From: Escherichia phage PBECO4
Strand: one strand, 5' to 3'
DNA: 64,000 bases
Sequence record: KC295538
In this document: piece after piece, positions 33,714-52,114 of the stretch
Position numbering within the stretch: position 1 is the first letter of the stretch
How the letters are laid out: every line of letters begins with the position of its first letter
Made by a program: the position numbers and the translations under genes
The notes under the pieces: generated by a model
Databases searched by the model: none
What the model was told of the DNA's origin: nothing
What the model saw: only the letters and a program-made list of their open reading frames with translations

Positions 33714-34502
33714 TTAAATGTTAGTAGTATAGTACTTGATTTCGTTTTGAATTGCAAGTTCTATTTGTTTATTGAAAAGAATTCCAAACTCTTTGATTGA
33801 TTCACAATCGAATTCAATAGAAAAAGTATACTCTGGTATACGTACATTGTCAATACCCAAATACTCTTTTATGTAAATTTTAATGAGTTCACATAGTGCA
33901 GTACTAAGACATTGAATTTCAAAATGTTTTGCACCTTTGTCAAAATACTTGAATGCATCAATATCACCTACAATAAAACTATTCTTTAATGTAGTGAATA
34001 GGTTCTCAGGAAACACGGTAATAGGTGACATTGATTTAAGAATGTATGTATCTTTGGCATTCTTAATGTACTCAATGAAGCAGTAGTTAACGTCAGGCTC
34101 GATTGAACGATCCGCGTTATGATACCAGTGTTTAAACTCACTGTATTCAGCAAACTTATGCTGGCGTAATGCGTTACAATCTTCACACAGTGCAGTCATG
34201 TTCTCTTTATCATTACCGCCCTGAAGACAGTCAAGTACATTATGGTCTAACGTCATGCGTACAAGGCGTTTCCCTTTAAGTACATAAGGTCTGAATTTAT
34301 AACGTTCTTTAGTACTGTGCTTATGTAAAGTGAATACCACATTGGATTCACCACAACAATCACATTTAAAGCCATCACGTGACATTACATGAATGAGTTT
34401 TCGAGTATTTGGACCAAACTCTGATTTGGTAATGTTACCTACAATTTCTGATGGTTTGTAGTATTTTGAATTCCGGCGAATCAATTCATCTATAGTGCTC
34501 AT
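33714..34502 (-). CDS. HNH endonuclease (free-standing, homing-endonuclease-like)
   Basis: CDCCGE ... TLDHNVLDCLQGGNDKENMTALCEDCNALRQH. Confidence 0.75.
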   Translation of the reverse strand: MSTIDELIRRNSKYYKPSEIVGNITKSEFGPNTRKLIHVMSRDGFKCDCCGESNVVFTLHKHSTKERYKFRPYVLKGKRLVRMTLDHNVLDCLQGGNDKENMTALCEDCNALRQHKFAEYSEFKHWYHNADRSIEPDVNYCFIEYIKNAKDTYILKSMSPITVFPENLFTTLKNSFIVGDIDAFKYFDKGAKHFEIQCLSTALCELIKIYIKEYLGIDNVRIPEYTFSIEFDCESIKEFGILFNKQIELAIQNEIKYYTTNI

Positions 34503-34503
34503 T

Positions 34504-34734
34504 TTATATTATTCCTTCTTTGTTACAACCTATAATTATTTTTGTAACTTCGATAACTCGTACCAAATGATATCCGTGAAAAAAGTTAAAACCATACATT
34601 TGTGCTAATGCATCGGCTTCAGATTTTGCACGGATACATGATAGATATAATTCTCGTATATCACCATCTAATGATGCTTGTTTCTCGTCATTGATAACAA
34701 TAGCACGAATCTCAAAACGAACACCATAACTCAT
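34504..34734 (-). CDS. hypothetical protein (76 aa)
   Basis: Track ORF. Confidence 0.55.
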   Translation of the reverse strand: MSYGVRFEIRAIVINDEKQASLDGDIRELYLSCIRAKSEADALAQMYGFNFFHGYHLVRVIEVTKIIIGCNKEGII

Positions 34735-34940
34735 TTAGTTTGACCCACAATAAGTTTCTCTTTAGTATTACTATTGTAACACCACATTTGTTCTTTACTA
34801 ACTGTAATCCAAATATCTTTGTTTACTTGTTCGTATGTACTATCACGTAATGCAATGCATTGATTCATGGAATTCATTGGGGTTATTTGTACACCGGAAT
34901 TAACAGAAAAAGCTATTACTAAAAAGATTACTGAATTCAT
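34731..34940 (-). CDS. small secreted protein (signal peptide)
   Basis: MNSVIFLVIAFSVNSGVQ...; first gene after promoter at 35006-35034. Confidence 0.55.
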   Translation of the reverse strand: MNSVIFLVIAFSVNSGVQITPMNSMNQCIALRDSTYEQVNKDIWITVSKEQMWCYNSNTKEKLIVGQTK

Positions 34941-35005
34941 TGGATATTCCTTAATGGTTAATCATCCATCTCTTCGAGATGTCTGTTCGCTTCTAATACT
35001 ACGTA

Positions 35006-35034
35006 TTCTACGCGAATGATTAATAACTGTCAAG
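35006..35034 (-). promoter_or_regulatory. consensus sigma-70 promoter TTGACA-17-TAGAAT
   Basis: Minus strand TTGACAgttattaatcattcgcgTAGAAT. Confidence 0.7.
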
Positions 35035-35560
35035 GACTTTTAATATTGACGGGATTTGAGGAAGGGATTTTTCTTCCCCCCCACAAGGAGGGAAATTTGA
35101 CGCTGATGGTATCAGAGCTATTGCATTGAAGATTACTCATAACGAGTGCGAAAGCGGGTCATCCTGTTTCTCTCTACTTCAGTTTCATATGACGGTCTAC
35201 ACTTTTAAACATAGTGTATCTTCATTAAGTATCTATGCAATCAAATACTTAATGTGAGTACTCAAATTCTGGACGCAACTTTCCTGTACAAAATTTGATA
35301 ACTCTCCCTTAGATAATTCGTAAGGTGTTATCCTTATATGTCTATCAAGGAACCACCAGCTATCCTAACGTGGTTCTTTATACAGCCGCATTGCCGTGAG
35401 GGGTTCAAACTATGCCCACATCTAACGGGTTTCTTTTGCTGTTCGCACTGTCGGACTGCTCAACTGCCCTCTACGTTTTCGAGTGGATCAGGTACATGAA
35501 TATCATGCCAACAGAATTGTACAAGATAATTATATCACAAACTTTTACTTCATCCCATAA

Positions 35561-35590
35561 AAAAAGGTTGGCTTATGCCAACCTTTTTTC
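35561..35590 (-). terminator. intrinsic terminator hairpin (AGGTTGGC-loop-GCCAACCT) with flanking A/T runs
   Basis: aaaaaaggttggcttatgccaacctttttt immediately 3' of the sigma-like gene. Confidence 0.7.
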
Positions 35591-35591
35591 T

Positions 35592-36557
35592 TTAGAAATC
35601 TTCGTATTCGTACCCTTTTGCAAGTACTAGCTTCTTAAGCTTTTGCATAGCTTCACTGTACTTTCGGTGTATTGATGAACGGGATTTAACATATTTTCCA
35701 TTATCATCAACAAAACCATTATCAGCAATCTCACGAAGCGTTTCAGGTTCATATTCACCTAGACCATGAACACGCTGGATAATCTCACGTTCTTTAGTAC
35801 TCAATTCGTTGGTCAGTTCATTGATAGCATAACGCAAAGGTGCACGGATACTATCAACATTGAGGTTAAAATCAGAAGCAGGTGAATGAATAATGTCACC
35901 TAATGTACCATCTGTAACACCGTCTAATGGTGCATCCAGCGAAGTGTATTCGCTTTGAAATAACAAACAATTATTAACATGCTGAATCTCAATCCCAGTA
36001 CCCTCTGAGATTATTTCAGGAGTTGGGCGAACACCATGTTTACGCATATATTCCTGACAGAATCTTTTTACTTTGATCTTATGAACACTCATATAACGTG
36101 GGAAGTGTACCATATAGTTAGCGTCAGAACTTTCGTTATAGACTGTCATGTAAATACTAGAAGAAGCATAGGTAATGAACTTAACATTCTTATTAAGATC
36201 AAAGGTTTTTAGTGCTCTCATGAACCCCTCAACACCATATGAAATCTTATCTTCAAATGGGATATAACAAGTACATTTACTTGCTACATCAATAATCAGT
36301 CCATAATTGTAACGAACTAACAGTTCAGTGTTTTTCTTTACATTGATACCAGCTTGAATATCACGAATTAGATCTTCATTGGAAACATTTGGTGGTCGCT
36401 TAAGTGTAATATTATATTTGAAACTGCTTTGTACTTTACCTTCATTTTCATCTTTATCTTCAACGAAATCTAAGGCTTCTAGTGTGTTGACTTCTTCATT
36501 AGCAAAACATTCATCCAGAACTTCTTCGGCAATTGTATTTAAATCAAGCTTTTTCAC
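35592..36557 (-). CDS. sigma-70-family RNA polymerase sigma factor-like protein (GTG start)
   Basis: C-terminal LSTKEREIIQRVHGLG..EPETLREIADNG..SRSSIHRKYSEAMQKLKK resembles region 4; AGGAG SD 6 nt before GTG. Confidence 0.65.
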   Translation of the reverse strand: MKKLDLNTIAEEVLDECFANEEVNTLEALDFVEDKDENEGKVQSSFKYNITLKRPPNVSNEDLIRDIQAGINVKKNTELLVRYNYGLIIDVASKCTCYIPFEDKISYGVEGFMRALKTFDLNKNVKFITYASSSIYMTVYNESSDANYMVHFPRYMSVHKIKVKRFCQEYMRKHGVRPTPEIISEGTGIEIQHVNNCLLFQSEYTSLDAPLDGVTDGTLGDIIHSPASDFNLNVDSIRAPLRYAINELTNELSTKEREIIQRVHGLGEYEPETLREIADNGFVDDNGKYVKSRSSIHRKYSEAMQKLKKLVLAKGYEYEDF

Positions 36558-47826: not shown

Positions 47827-47916
<90 letters not shown>

Positions 47917-47928
47917 AGAAGTAAGATA

Positions 47929-48101
<173 letters not shown>

Positions 48102-48144
48102 ATTGACCTCGTTAGATTAAAACCCCCAGTTTTCTTCTTGAACC

Positions 48145-48204
<60 letters not shown>

Positions 48205-48261
48205 GTATTCTACAGCGACCATTTTAGCTAAAGGTGAACTGAGCATACTCGAAGTACCTCT

Positions 48262-48929
<668 letters not shown>

Positions 48930-48944
48930 TTATACCTCGCATTG

Positions 48945-49104
<160 letters not shown>

Positions 49105-49107
49105 GTA

Positions 49108-49207
<100 letters not shown>

Positions 49208-49242
49208 ATATCAGTACTGAAAACTATTGTCCAGTAGTATTT

Positions 49243-49602
49243 TCAGAAAAAAACCTTATTCAACACTTTAATTATCACAGAATTTAATTCATGTGGGAAC
49301 ACATTTTCATATACTGTGCGTTTCTGAAATTCATCTTCTTCATCAGCACTTAGCTGGAAGGTAATGTATTGAGCATTTATACTATTTATTATATCACGTA
49401 AAGTGTTATTTGTCCTTTTTATTTCTTCAAATGATTCAAAAACAATTACATCGTCATTTATAATAAATGATTCACCATATTCATTGAAAATGCGAATTCC
49501 AGGATTATCTTTACACCAGTTATTGGTATGGTCTGTTGTTAATTTTGAATTCAAAAATGATTTAAGAAACTCTTCATACTTTGAAATGTCTTTAACACTC
49601 AT
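49243..49602 (-). CDS. hypothetical protein with EDEFQKRT motif (family FQ-like)
   Basis: Track ORF. Confidence 0.6.
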   Translation of the reverse strand: MSVKDISKYEEFLKSFLNSKLTTDHTNNWCKDNPGIRIFNEYGESFIINDDVIVFESFEEIKRTNNTLRDIINSINAQYITFQLSADEEDEFQKRTVYENVFPHELNSVIIKVLNKVFF

Positions 49603-49679
49603 ATCACCAACTTTAATTAAAAAAATGGATGGTGACGCTTTTAAACGCCGCTGTTAATTCAGCTTTATAACCACCCGTT

Positions 49680-49889
49680 TTAACTTACCTTTCGGCTACC
49701 TTGACGTGGGGCGTACAGGCTACTAAAAGCAACTTCTGTAAACATATTTCCACGCCTTACCCTTTTAAATAAAAGTCCATCCGGTTTTCCAGTTTGGTGA
49801 AGGACTTTCACCTCTAGTTTCAACCTGCTAGTCAAGTAATAATTGCCTATCGTCCAATTATCAAACCCGTCTAGGTTAACATTCACCAC
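49680..49889 (-). CDS. questionable 69-aa ORF inside GC-richer structured region (alternatively part of an ncRNA)
   Basis: AGGAAG SD-like upstream, but codon usage atypical for this genome. Confidence 0.3.
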   Translation of the reverse strand: MVNVNLDGFDNWTIGNYYLTSRLKLEVKVLHQTGKPDGLLFKRVRRGNMFTEVAFSSLYAPRQGSRKVS

Positions 49890-49964
49890 TTCCTAGAGTA
49901 CCAGAGATCTTGTTCTGGTTAGCATCGACGTAACTTACACCATATACGTCTGATTGTGGAATTC

Positions 49965-50002
<38 letters not shown>

Positions 50003-50059
50003 ACAAATCTGGACGTTCATCTTTAAACATATTAATATCCTCAGTACTGAATTATTTAG

Positions 50060-50473
<414 letters not shown>

Positions 50474-50483
50474 CTTTTTTTTT

Positions 50484-50645
<162 letters not shown>

Positions 50646-50649
<4 letters not shown>

Positions 50650-50810
50650 GTTCGTACCATTATTTCAATAAAGAACCACGGATACGCTTCATGGTTTATA
50701 AGTTTATCGTATTCTGCTGGGTCTGACATGATTTCCCAATGATACTTTCTCCAGTTACCGAAACCTGCATATCTAAAATTAATGTCATTCATCCATTCTT
50801 CATGCGTCAT
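50646..50810 (-). CDS. small protein, MTHEEW family (54 aa)
   Basis: MTHEEWMNDINFRYAGFGNW... Confidence 0.55.
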
Positions 50811-50814
50811 GGTT

Positions 50815-50916
<102 letters not shown>

Positions 50917-50920
50917 ATTT

Positions 50921-51036
<116 letters not shown>

Positions 51037-51053
51037 ATGTGATGTCCCATTAT

Positions 51054-51326
51054 TTATGATTCAGTTTGAGGATTAAATTTGATAAATTCATCTTTATGTT
51101 CATCTTCAAACGCAATATCTTCTACGTATTCAGGCCAAATCGTAGTGTCTCCTTGATAAAAGCGATAATTATCAAATACTGCACTACGCGTTCTTCCCTG
51201 TTCCCAGCCAATCGTACAGTCATGATATACATCCCCACTACTTGTACGAATACTAATGGTGTCTTGAGTTTCATAAAGAACTTCAATGCGTGTGTTACGA
51301 TTTACGTTGAATTTTTCAAAATGCAT
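51054..51326 (-). CDS. hypothetical protein (90 aa)
   Basis: Track ORF. Confidence 0.6.
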   Translation of the reverse strand: MHFEKFNVNRNTRIEVLYETQDTISIRTSSGDVYHDCTIGWEQGRTRSAVFDNYRFYQGDTTIWPEYVEDIAFEDEHKDEFIKFNPQTES

Positions 51327-51379
51327 AATATTATCCTCATCTAGAACCAGTGATAATCATTATATAATGAATTAATGAT

Positions 51380-51706
51380 TTATGCAAGTGTTTTAGATAC
51401 ACCGACACCAATAATTCCAGTGATATCGATATGGATATTGGCAAGTTGATTACTATCATATGGGTTTGTTTCTGTAATAACCAATGTTGTATCATTGACT
51501 AAAACCACAGTACCTTTTACACGATAACCATGTAGTAGTACTTGAACCTCATCTTCAGGTTTTAATGATTGAATAACTTCAAATAAAGTTGTTTCCATTT
51601 TTTGTATTCCTTGTTTAGTTTTGATTATTTGACTTTCTAAATGCCAGTTCGCATATAAACCAGGGTTTTCTGGTATCCAAAACATATGACCTGAAAAGAT
51701 TTTCAT
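51380..51706 (-). CDS. hypothetical protein (start uncertain, possibly internal ATG ~51598)
   Basis: Track ORF overlaps next gene by 92 nt. Confidence 0.5.
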   Translation of the reverse strand: MKIFSGHMFWIPENPGLYANWHLESQIIKTKQGIQKMETTLFEVIQSLKPEDEVQVLLHGYRVKGTVVLVNDTTLVITETNPYDSNQLANIHIDITGIIGVGVSKTLA

Positions 51707-51815
51707 CTCTTAATATATCATAATGTACCTGACGAATGCCATTCCCAAAGCAGTCATGTTCTTTATGCTGTTTGGACATCCATTCTTCGTGTGTCATTTT
51801 ATGTATCCAGTACAA
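51615..51815 (-). CDS. small protein, MTHEEW family
   Basis: MYWIHKMTHEEWMSKQ...FGNGIRQVHYDILRD. Confidence 0.6.
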   Translation of the reverse strand: MYWIHKMTHEEWMSKQHKEHDCFGNGIRQVHYDILRDENLFRSYVLDTRKPWFICELAFRKSNNQN

Positions 51816-52014
51816 TTAAGTGCTGCATCTCTTCTTTTGTAAAGAAAGCACTGTCATGAACAATAGAACCAGTCTTATCAACTACATAGTACAGGTTTCC
51901 ATATTGTTGAACATCAATTCCGTCAATTTCAATTCGTGGAAAATTTTGGACAATACAGTCTGCACCGAAAACCTCACCAAAAAAGTTTCCTGCTGGATTG
52001 ATAATGACTTTCAT
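51799..52014 (-). CDS. hypothetical protein (71 aa)
   Basis: Track ORF. Confidence 0.55.
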   Translation of the reverse strand: MKVIINPAGNFFGEVFGADCIVQNFPRIEIDGIDVQQYGNLYYVVDKTGSIVHDSAFFTKEEMQHLIVLDT

Positions 52015-52032
52015 ATTAAATCACCTTTATTG

Positions 52033-52114
<82 letters not shown>

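Follow-up and report, generated by a model that had tools for sequence, protein, structure and literature searches.

The minus strand of Escherichia phage PBECO4 (sequence record KC295538) between approximately positions 35522 and 35042 is very probably an independently transcribed gene for a structured non-coding RNA of ~480 nt, a conclusion that was reached without transcript data and with RNA ends that are predicted. All positions refer to the window, i.e., the whole analyzed stretch of 64,000 nucleotides. The best explanation of the observations, and in our judgment a likely one, is an independently transcribed large non-coding RNA gene with a complex fold whose product acts in trans, with target and chemistry unknown. 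A structured RNA had been one of the candidates of the preliminary description of this region, and it is borne out by covariation among 50 homologues, a promoter in 49 of them and a conservation far above that of the neighboring protein. This class of large structured RNA appears not to have been described before, and its organization in several paralogues is unusual.

Genomic Context and Predicted Transcription of the RNA Gene

Blastn comparison of the RNA region revealed 100% identity to Salmonella phage SD-2_S15 and 99% identity to E. coli phage 121Q (NC_025447, positions 90174-90923, opposite orientation), and the window genome is that of an Asteriusvirus-type jumbo phage. Nearly all genes of this stretch are located on the minus strand, including the two ORFs (34731..34940 and the sigma-factor ORF 35592..36557) that border the non-coding gap. 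This gap had been described from its sequence as a GC-richer, non-coding island of ~520 bp (35035-35560) without a credible ORF, which was confirmed: GC content amounts to 39.9% over these positions and 41.4% over 35042-35522 (98.7th percentile among equal-sized windows), compared with 33.7% for the whole window, and the gap contains only ORFs of 36-72 aa, none of them conserved. The reported C-runs and stem-forming segments are also present, as a C-run/G-run hairpin and several stems can be read directly in the sequence. Compared with dinucleotide-shuffled sequences, the two strands are both better folded (z = -4.3 and -3.3).

The flanking elements were found as claimed, i.e., a terminator-like hairpin that ends the sigma-factor gene on one side and a sigma-70-type promoter for the downstream genes on the other (Table 1). 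The hairpin is symmetric, flanked by an A-run and, on the opposite side, a T-run, and it was absent from the output of the pattern scan, probably because these A/T runs lengthen its stem. The functional unit had to be corrected to the minus strand, from the promoter at ~35557 to 35042. With a terminator upstream and a separate promoter downstream, the RNA of the window forms an independent unit. A -35-like TTGAAC or TTAAAC motif is located 3' of the RNA in most other copies of the alignment.

A promoter of its own precedes the RNA gene. In the minus-strand sense of the window, a -10 box (TATAAT in 43 and TATACT in six cases) lies 5' of 49 of the 50 aligned homologues, 46 of these 49 carry the extended -10 TG, and in 44 a TGRRAC-type hexamer is situated 16-18 nt further upstream; TGRRAC is the family consensus of the hexamer that reads TGGGAT in the window. 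The 5' end of the RNA was predicted from the -10 box, the 3' end from the limit of family conservation. No intrinsic terminator was evident between the RNA of the window copy and the next promoter. As this copy lacks a terminator of its own, the RNA may be processed from a longer precursor, or its transcription may continue into the downstream genes.

The sense of the RNA is supported by its base pairs. Consensus helices are 93.5% paired with 8.2% G-U pairs on the sense strand, vs. 87.7% and 2.5% on the antisense strand. All 50 copies share one invariant G-U pair, and several alternations between C-G and U-G are tolerated in the minus-strand sense only. Substitutions across the homologues show no 3-nt periodicity (3208/3030/3019), and only a minority of the indels have a length divisible by three (170 vs. 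854 and 271), with most indels measuring 1 or 2 nt.

Current annotation at the RNA loci in GenBank consists of nothing, of small ORFs or, in one case, of a "repeat_region." Small annotated ORFs overlap the RNA gene in RaK2 (ORF245, L202:10267-10473) and 121Q (gp516, 247799-247954), and "hypothetical protein" calls lie under the RNA match in SD-2_S15, JP4, WPEC3, and others; these ORFs are probably spurious. Elsewhere in the window, a 262-aa ORF (33714-34502, minus strand) that lies ~0.5 kb downstream of the RNA is the counterpart of 121Q gp170, an annotated HNH endonuclease, and may be a homing element. A tRNA cluster is located at 47837-52112 (minus strand), in which ARAGORN identified six tRNAs (Thr, Asn, Met, Ser, Ser, and Gly). 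Rfam also yields six tRNAs, but a different set that adds a borderline match at 50838-50916 (29.3 bits), where 121Q carries an annotated tRNA-Leu, and misses tRNA-Gly at 52040-52112.

Table 1. Elements of the RNA gene and its flanks in the window.
Feature	Position	Strand	Description
Terminator-like hairpin ending the sigma-factor gene	35560..35589	-	GGUUGGC-AUAA-GCCAACC plus U-run, read from the sequence
RNA-gene promoter	35529..35557	-	TGGGAT 35557-35552, 17-nt spacer, TG 35537-35536, TATAAT 35534-35529
Structured RNA body (~480 nt)	35042..35522	-	5'-core covariance model match 35301-35464 (161 bits); alignments; covariation
P1	35448..35514	-	CUGUUGG 35514-35508 with CCGACAG 35454-35448; encloses P2 and P3
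P2 hairpin	35507-35495	-	Inside P1
P3	35492-35464	-	Conserved loop GAAAAnGUA; inside P1
P4 (ACAGC/GCUGU) and P5 (CCGU/ACGG)	35382..35442	-	Helices 4-5, 100% and 99.5% paired
P7 hairpin (GAACCAC/GUGGUUC) and P8 hairpin (UAAGG/CCUUA)	35302..35376	-	Helices 6-7; 6/6 and 2/4 pairs covary
Movable module	35263..35297	-	9-bp stem CAAAUUUUG/CAGAAUUUG, 17-nt loop UACAGGAAAGUUGCGUC; family loop consensus UACAAUAUAGAUCCGUC
3' domain (P9, P10, P12, P13, P14, two pseudoknots)	35120..35254	-	Helices 8-14
P9 long hairpin	35254-35223	-	Loop 35241-35236 forms pseudoknot 1
Pseudoknot 1	35241-35236 with 35125-35120	-	6/6 pairs covary, 99.7% paired
P10	35217-35199	-	3' domain helix
Pseudoknot 2	35193-35189 with 35162-35158	-	GUCAU with AUGAC; 3/5 pairs covary, 100% paired
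P12	35181-35177/35131-35127	-	3' domain helix
P13	35174-35170/35154-35150	-	3' domain helix
P14 hairpin	35148-35134	-	3' domain helix
Box 1	35097..35107	-	AUCAGCGUCAA; family A-Y-C-A-N-CGUCAR; varies in concert with box 2
P15 C-run/G-run hairpin	35074..35094	-	UUCCCUCC-UUGU-GGGGGGGAA; helix 15
Box 2	35046..35055	-	AUCCCGUCAA; family A-Y-C-N-CGUCAR; last conserved block of the RNA
Sigma-70-type promoter for downstream genes	35005..35033	-	TTGACA-17-TAGAAT, separate; pattern scan, 11/12 matches

Secondary Structure, Pseudoknots, and Conserved Boxes

The structure was derived from an alignment (A3) of 50 full-length copies of less than 94% identity, written in RNA sense. RNAalifold predicted 66 pairs from 21 copies, 35 of which showed compensatory changes, and 96 pairs from the 50-copy alignment, of which 93.5% were paired vs. 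34-47% when the 3' partners were slid. An independent scan for covarying stacks in the same alignment detected two pseudoknots, one between the P9 hairpin loop and the strand after P12 and one between GUUGC after P10 and GCAAC in the P13 loop. Both are essentially 100% paired, and nine of their 11 pairs covary. The curated model consists of the RNAalifold structure minus five helices that never covary, plus the two pseudoknots; the helices GAUAG/CUAUC, CG/CG, and GUU/AAC were dropped as they showed no covariation.

This model comprises 93 pairs in 15 helices, including the two pseudoknots, and 94.2% of its cells are paired compared with 35.5-43.6% in the slid controls. Changes on both sides occur in 67 of the 93 pairs and in 816 cells (with 90-143 such cells in the slid controls), the covariation score amounts to 0.497 (0.065-0.109 in slid controls), and none of 500 shuffles reached the model in any measure of pairing or covariation. 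The structure was derived from the same related sequences that score it, and the controls favor it somewhat, but not on this scale. Among the individual helices, P1-P3 show compensatory changes in 19 of 21 pairs and three pairs of P4 covary, while the variation of P15 consists mostly of changes from C-G to U-G, so that pairing survives on the minus strand only.

Complete conservation across the 50 copies is seen at ~95 positions and conservation of at least 90% at a further ~70, many of them in joining strands and loops. The region of P4 and P5 contains the invariant joining strands AAAAGAAA and CAAUGCG in addition to a variable insertion hairpin, and in the region of P7 and P8 (35302..35376) P7 is followed by the invariant GAUAGACAUAUAAGG and P8 by the invariant CUAAGGGAG. 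Further conserved blocks include UAUAAAG, UAAGGGAG, AGAAAC, and ACCCGCUU. The family can be defined by a 5' core of GAUGAG..CAGCAAAAGAAACCCG..CACGGCAAUGCGGC..UAUAAAG..GAUAGACAUAUAAGG..UAAGGGAG and a 3' core of GACCGU..AGAAAC..ACCCGCUU with the two pseudoknots and the twin CGUCAR boxes. The window copy meets this definition, with 161 bits on the 5'-core model (R1) and every helix and box present. The block UAAGGGAG was considered as a Shine-Dalgarno-like site and rejected, as no start codon follows it, and CsrA-type GGA motifs were discarded since the GGA sites are not conserved among the copies.

One hairpin of the RNA is a movable module. It is located between the two domains in most copies, including that of the window. 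Nine of the 50 aligned sequences carry it on P14 of the 3' domain instead, and four copies (L131, L138, L139, and L140) have it at both positions. In large ribozymes and ribonucleoprotein particles, it is typical for peripheral elements to reach one and the same place from different helices.

Near the 3' end of the RNA, two boxes in direct repeat flank P15. Within each molecule they agree at the Y position in 50 of 50 and at the R position in 48 of 50 copies, and all four Y/R combinations occur. One Serratia copy exhibits CGACAA and the RaK2 copy CUUCAAG in both boxes, and genomes with different box variants keep the match within each copy. No complementary partner for the twin boxes was found. 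The 5' UGAC of P1/P2 was considered as an internal guide, as it is complementary to GUCA, but it does not covary with the boxes. It is identity between the boxes rather than complementarity that is maintained, which suggests twin sites for one reaction or for one docking partner.

Additional hairpins were identified in many copies. A hairpin with U6 directly follows the predicted start in ~40% of the aligned copies and a strong hairpin with a U-run is located between box 1 and P15 in about half of them, while the window copy carries neither. Examples are found in the copies L051, L019, L099, and L058 (A3 columns ~63-105), at L104:27060-27095 and at L137:6950-6975. These hairpins could be attenuators or terminators that set paralogue-specific forms of the RNA. 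How they are to be reconciled with a simple RNA gene remains unclear.

Distribution and Paralogues in Jumbo Phages

The core of the element (~35040-35495) was found by blastn in 60 of 50,697 phage records, all of them jumbo phages of ~310-386 kb that infect Escherichia, Salmonella, Erwinia, Yersinia, Serratia, Pectobacterium, Cronobacter, Klebsiella, or Xanthomonas. Most records exhibit 3-5 separate matching places and one Xanthomonas phage exhibits two; each jumbo phage of the 121Q, GAP32, CBB, or BF type has 3-5 anciently diverged copies. The element is kept across at least seven phage genera, and the expectation that would have refuted the preliminary reading, namely a region variable or absent in relatives, was clearly not met. 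Copies of the GAP32, CBB, and BF type share ~70% nucleotide identity with the window copy, while the adjacent sigma protein of these phages shows only ~35% amino-acid identity. Non-coding DNA that persists longer than the proteins encoded beside it must be functional.

In 121Q, four copies in one orientation are located at 90.3-90.8, 192.8-193.3, 247.5-248.0, and 326.6-327.2 kb. All of them are intergenic, in gaps of ~0.4-0.8 kb between annotated CDSs, though one overlaps the dubious 51-aa gene gp516 and another lies antisense to the surrounding genes. They are 64-74% identical among themselves and have different neighbors at each locus. The window contains no second copy detectable by blastn, nhmmer, or the covariance model. 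With the 5'-core covariance model, exactly one match was obtained in the window, four were obtained in 121Q, and one each in an E. coli island and RaK2. 121Q also has a region of nearly 2 kb (135194-137161, not part of the window) without an annotated gene, in which neither nhmmer nor the covariance model identified a copy of the RNA.

Scans of public collections were limited to exact patterns derived from invariant blocks. In IMG/VR, a 15-mer returned 96 stretches, but only ~25 of the loci taken contained a copy according to nhmmer and the rest appear to be chance matches. A pattern of 19 fixed bases identified 45 IMG/VR stretches (on contigs of 9.8-378 kb), 60 metagenome loci, and four bacterial genomes. 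IMG/VR contigs of 350-380 kb carry several copies each, and the shorter contigs probably represent pieces of such genomes. The 50 full-length copies of the alignment were derived from these collections.

Clustering of the copies of BF, CBB, GAP32, Yen9-04, and metagenomic genomes resulted in four groups with one member per genome each, with the exception of CBB, which has two copies in one group and is missing from two others. As these groups recur across genera, the duplications predate the genera and every paralogue has been kept. The retention of all paralogues argues for more than simple dosage and points to an individual role for each of them or to a joint function as a set. The positions of the paralogues also appear to be kept across genera.

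The Klebsiella RaK2 group encodes a sigma homologue of 44% identity and gave no blastn match to the RNA. A divergent copy was nevertheless identified by the 5'-core model R1 (50 bits, E = 2e-11) directly downstream of the sigma gene of RaK2; it exhibits the promoter, both domains, and the G-run hairpin, and it overlaps ORF245. The position after the sigma gene is consequently common to RaK2 and the window copy. The RNA directly follows the sigma-70-like gene in 121Q-type phages and RaK2 and is located ~4-5 kb downstream of it in GAP32, CBB, and BF. The association of the sigma gene with one paralogue is a loose synteny.

Copies in Bacterial Chromosomal Islands

The four bacterial matches are located in a Serratia fonticola chromosome, Serratia sp. 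2723, Silvania hatchlandensis, and a metagenome-assembled genome of the Enterobacteriaceae. Neighboring genes in these islands code for large serine recombinases, CI/LexA-type repressors, and RepB/ParB-type proteins, beside ordinary host genes, and the RNA is the only thing that the bacterial islands share with 121Q. A unit of ~960 bp is common to two Serratia strains, in different contexts. In E. coli, two of 5,426 complete genomes carry a copy. That of strain LR-29-1 is unannotated and lies in an island of ~10.7 kb between ffs and ybaA (L201:10848-21646), which also contains IS3, integrase remnants, a small recombinase, DuOB, DUF488, and DUF4326; the latter three are candidate defense genes (candidate system PDC-M45).

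Chromosomal copies are single in each island. Neither the four 121Q loci nor the five chromosomal loci revealed a conserved protein neighbor, and since no protein is common to all contexts, the RNA and its promoter behave like a self-contained unit. The islands and prophage-like elements that carry it may be satellites of jumbo phages or defenses against them.

Proposed Function and Alternative Explanations

In the proposed mechanism, the RNA would be transcribed by the host sigma-70 RNA polymerase immediately after infection and, as inferred, constitutively in the islands. Once folded, it would act in trans on a component of the host or the phage, either by itself, as an oligomer, or together with a protein, and the neighboring genes would not be its target. 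Early transcription and action in trans are proposed because the neighbors show no relationship from one locus to the next, a separate promoter serves the downstream genes, some of the copies are opposed by converging genes, and the RNA moves alone between mobile elements. The action in trans is an inference that we favor only by some degree, as neither a partner nor a target has been identified. A more far-reaching reading, offered tentatively and with considerable doubt, would join these observations into a new ornate RNA class that is needed as a set of at least four paralogues, possibly as subunits of a hetero-oligomer or as ribozymes. The twin boxes might then be two substrates or docking sites of one reaction (processing, ligation, or switching), and the island copies hijacked parts or decoys against jumbo phages.

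The strongest competing explanation is a structured pre-primer or R-loop RNA, with each copy marking one of several replication origins, which we consider unlikely. Such an RNA would fold like ColE1 RNA II, its 3' part would stay on the template, and processing by RNase H would allow it to prime a T4-like replisome, by analogy with oriF and oriG of T4. The four 121Q copies are dispersed (90, 193, 248, and 327 kb) in one orientation and paralogue positions appear conserved, the phage encodes a T4-type replisome, RNase H, and UvsW, a G-run lies beside a C-run near the RNA 3' end, and size and promoter-driven structure resemble those of ColE1 RNA II; the island copies would, speculatively, be satellites borrowing the origin of their helper. 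However, two pseudoknots and ~95 invariant plus ~70 near-invariant positions over the whole length, many of which lie outside the scored helices, indicate a compact fold, which would disfavor a persistent RNA-DNA hybrid. The RNA is followed by the promoter and not by an iteron array or a distinctive AT-rich unwinding element, and copies also reside in small chromosomal islands without replication genes. The cumulative GC skew of 121Q only tracks gene orientation and is uninformative on origins. An origin, which the preliminary description had also considered, would be possible only as a structured primer RNA and in this form is not excluded.

The missing terminator of the window copy, the terminator-like hairpins inside or just before many copies and a GC hairpin flanked by conserved boxes, loosely resembling a nut site, would agree with a cis-acting leader or with an anti-termination or processing element for the genes downstream of each copy. 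Yet each locus has different downstream genes, which are served by a promoter of their own, one 121Q copy and the island copies L137 and L138 face converging genes, and 480 nt with pseudoknots are far beyond known leaders of such type, which renders this explanation very improbable. Slightly less credit still is given to a selfish repeat without use to the phage, such as an ORF-less, intron-like ribozyme or MITE-like DNA. Its multiple copies in unrelated mobile elements, the shared ~960-bp Serratia unit in different contexts, and the direct-repeat boxes around a hairpin would agree with such an origin, but the paralogues are ancient and apparently at conserved positions across genera, rather than recently spread. 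There are also no flanking exons, terminal inverted repeats, or Rfam matches to group I or II introns (E up to 10), and a promoter is present on each copy (49 of 50 aligned). Finally, a small protein-coding gene or a packaging (pac) site has next to no probability. Plus-strand ORFs of 53 and 72 aa exist and hypothetical proteins are annotated in some GenBank records, but codon periodicity is absent, indels shift the frame, and conservation tracks base pairing. Nothing supports the packaging-related site suggested earlier: four dispersed copies do not fit a pac site, and T4-like headful packaging needs none.

Significance and Comparison With Known RNAs

To our knowledge, bacterial or phage RNAs of more than 400 nt with a conserved tertiary fold are very rare. 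They include rRNA, RNase P, tmRNA, group I and II introns, OLE, GOLLD, ROOL, HEARO, and raiA, and each of those known to us proved to be a ribozyme, the core of a ribonucleoprotein or, recently, a self-assembling cage. The RNA described here is present in cultivable E. coli phages (121Q, phAPEC6, and PBECO4-like phages) and in islands of E. coli and Serratia. Genetics, RNA-seq, and cryo-EM are therefore directly feasible, which has so far been hard for ROOL and GOLLD, and handles on the mechanism are provided by the several distinct paralogues kept in each genome, by the loop module that changes position, and by the twin boxes that vary in concert. The annotation of many GenBank records, which place hypothetical proteins on the RNA (e.g., RaK2 ORF245 and 121Q gp516), is corrected as well.

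The Rfam/Infernal search that had been proposed as a check assigned the RNA of the window to no family. Rfam 15 (4227 models) at gathering thresholds returned only tRNAs over the whole window, the search at E<=10 over 34800-35700 gave only weak, sub-threshold matches that all lie on the sigma terminator hairpin, and the search of five diverse copies at E<=1 found nothing on the RNA. A tRNA or tmRNA was ruled out, as ARAGORN identified the six tRNAs at 47.8-52.1 kb and nothing at 35.0-35.6 kb. The RNA is not described in the genome papers of UE-S1, CBB, and Sharanji or in a 2026 review of jumbo-phage biology, and searches by topic, phage name, and exact sequence string retrieved no description from the openly searchable literature, which excludes subscription-only sources.

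ColE1 RNA II is a promoter-driven, structured RNA of roughly 500 nt, and oriF and oriG of T4 are examples of several dispersed, promoter-dependent R-loop origins in a T4-type replication system. In contrast to these RNAs, there is no evidence of a hybrid, no antisense regulator, and no homology for the jumbo-phage RNA, whose fold is far more elaborate, and T4 origins share no conserved RNA structure, unlike the jumbo-phage copies. Group I introns of T4-like phages are similar in that they, too, are structured RNAs (250-500 nt) present in multiple copies and equipped with pseudoknots and peripheral modules. A group I intron was rejected, however, as exons are missing and the copies are intergenic, that of the window being situated with its own promoter between the sigma terminator and the next promoter; the helix topology also differs from the P3-P7 pseudoknot scheme and no match to Rfam Intron_gpI was obtained.

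The jumbo phage PA5oct, which is distantly related to the Rak2 group, encodes four intergenic, ORF-free lncRNAs of 236-619 nt (ncRNA001-004), two of which are very abundant in RNA-seq (PMC7318152). They were rejected as members of the family, as nhmmer gave no match and the 5'-core model with filters off reached 8.4 bits at best.

ROOL is a phage and prophage RNA of ~500-600 nt with many covarying helices, pseudoknots, and no known protein partner or function, GOLLD is an ornate phage and prophage RNA of unknown function that is expressed during lysis, and both assemble into RNA-only cages (PMC12286853). The jumbo-phage RNA resembles ROOL as a large phage-encoded RNA with many covarying helices and pseudoknots, but cmscan gave no match to ROOL at E-values up to 10. 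ROOL is found mostly in Firmicutes and in rumen phages, near tRNA islands, whereas the present RNA occurs in jumbo phages of Enterobacterales and Xanthomonas and is separated from the tRNA cluster by ~12 kb. Its retention as several diverged paralogues in one genome also distinguishes it from ROOL. GOLLD exceeds 800 nt, is usually located beside tRNAs, and is single-copy, and the jumbo-phage RNA has no GOLLD match in Rfam. Without detectable homology, ROOL and GOLLD are the closest analogues in kind, and our best guess is a trans-acting RNA or ribonucleoprotein, produced early by the host RNA polymerase, of a new class comparable in kind to them.
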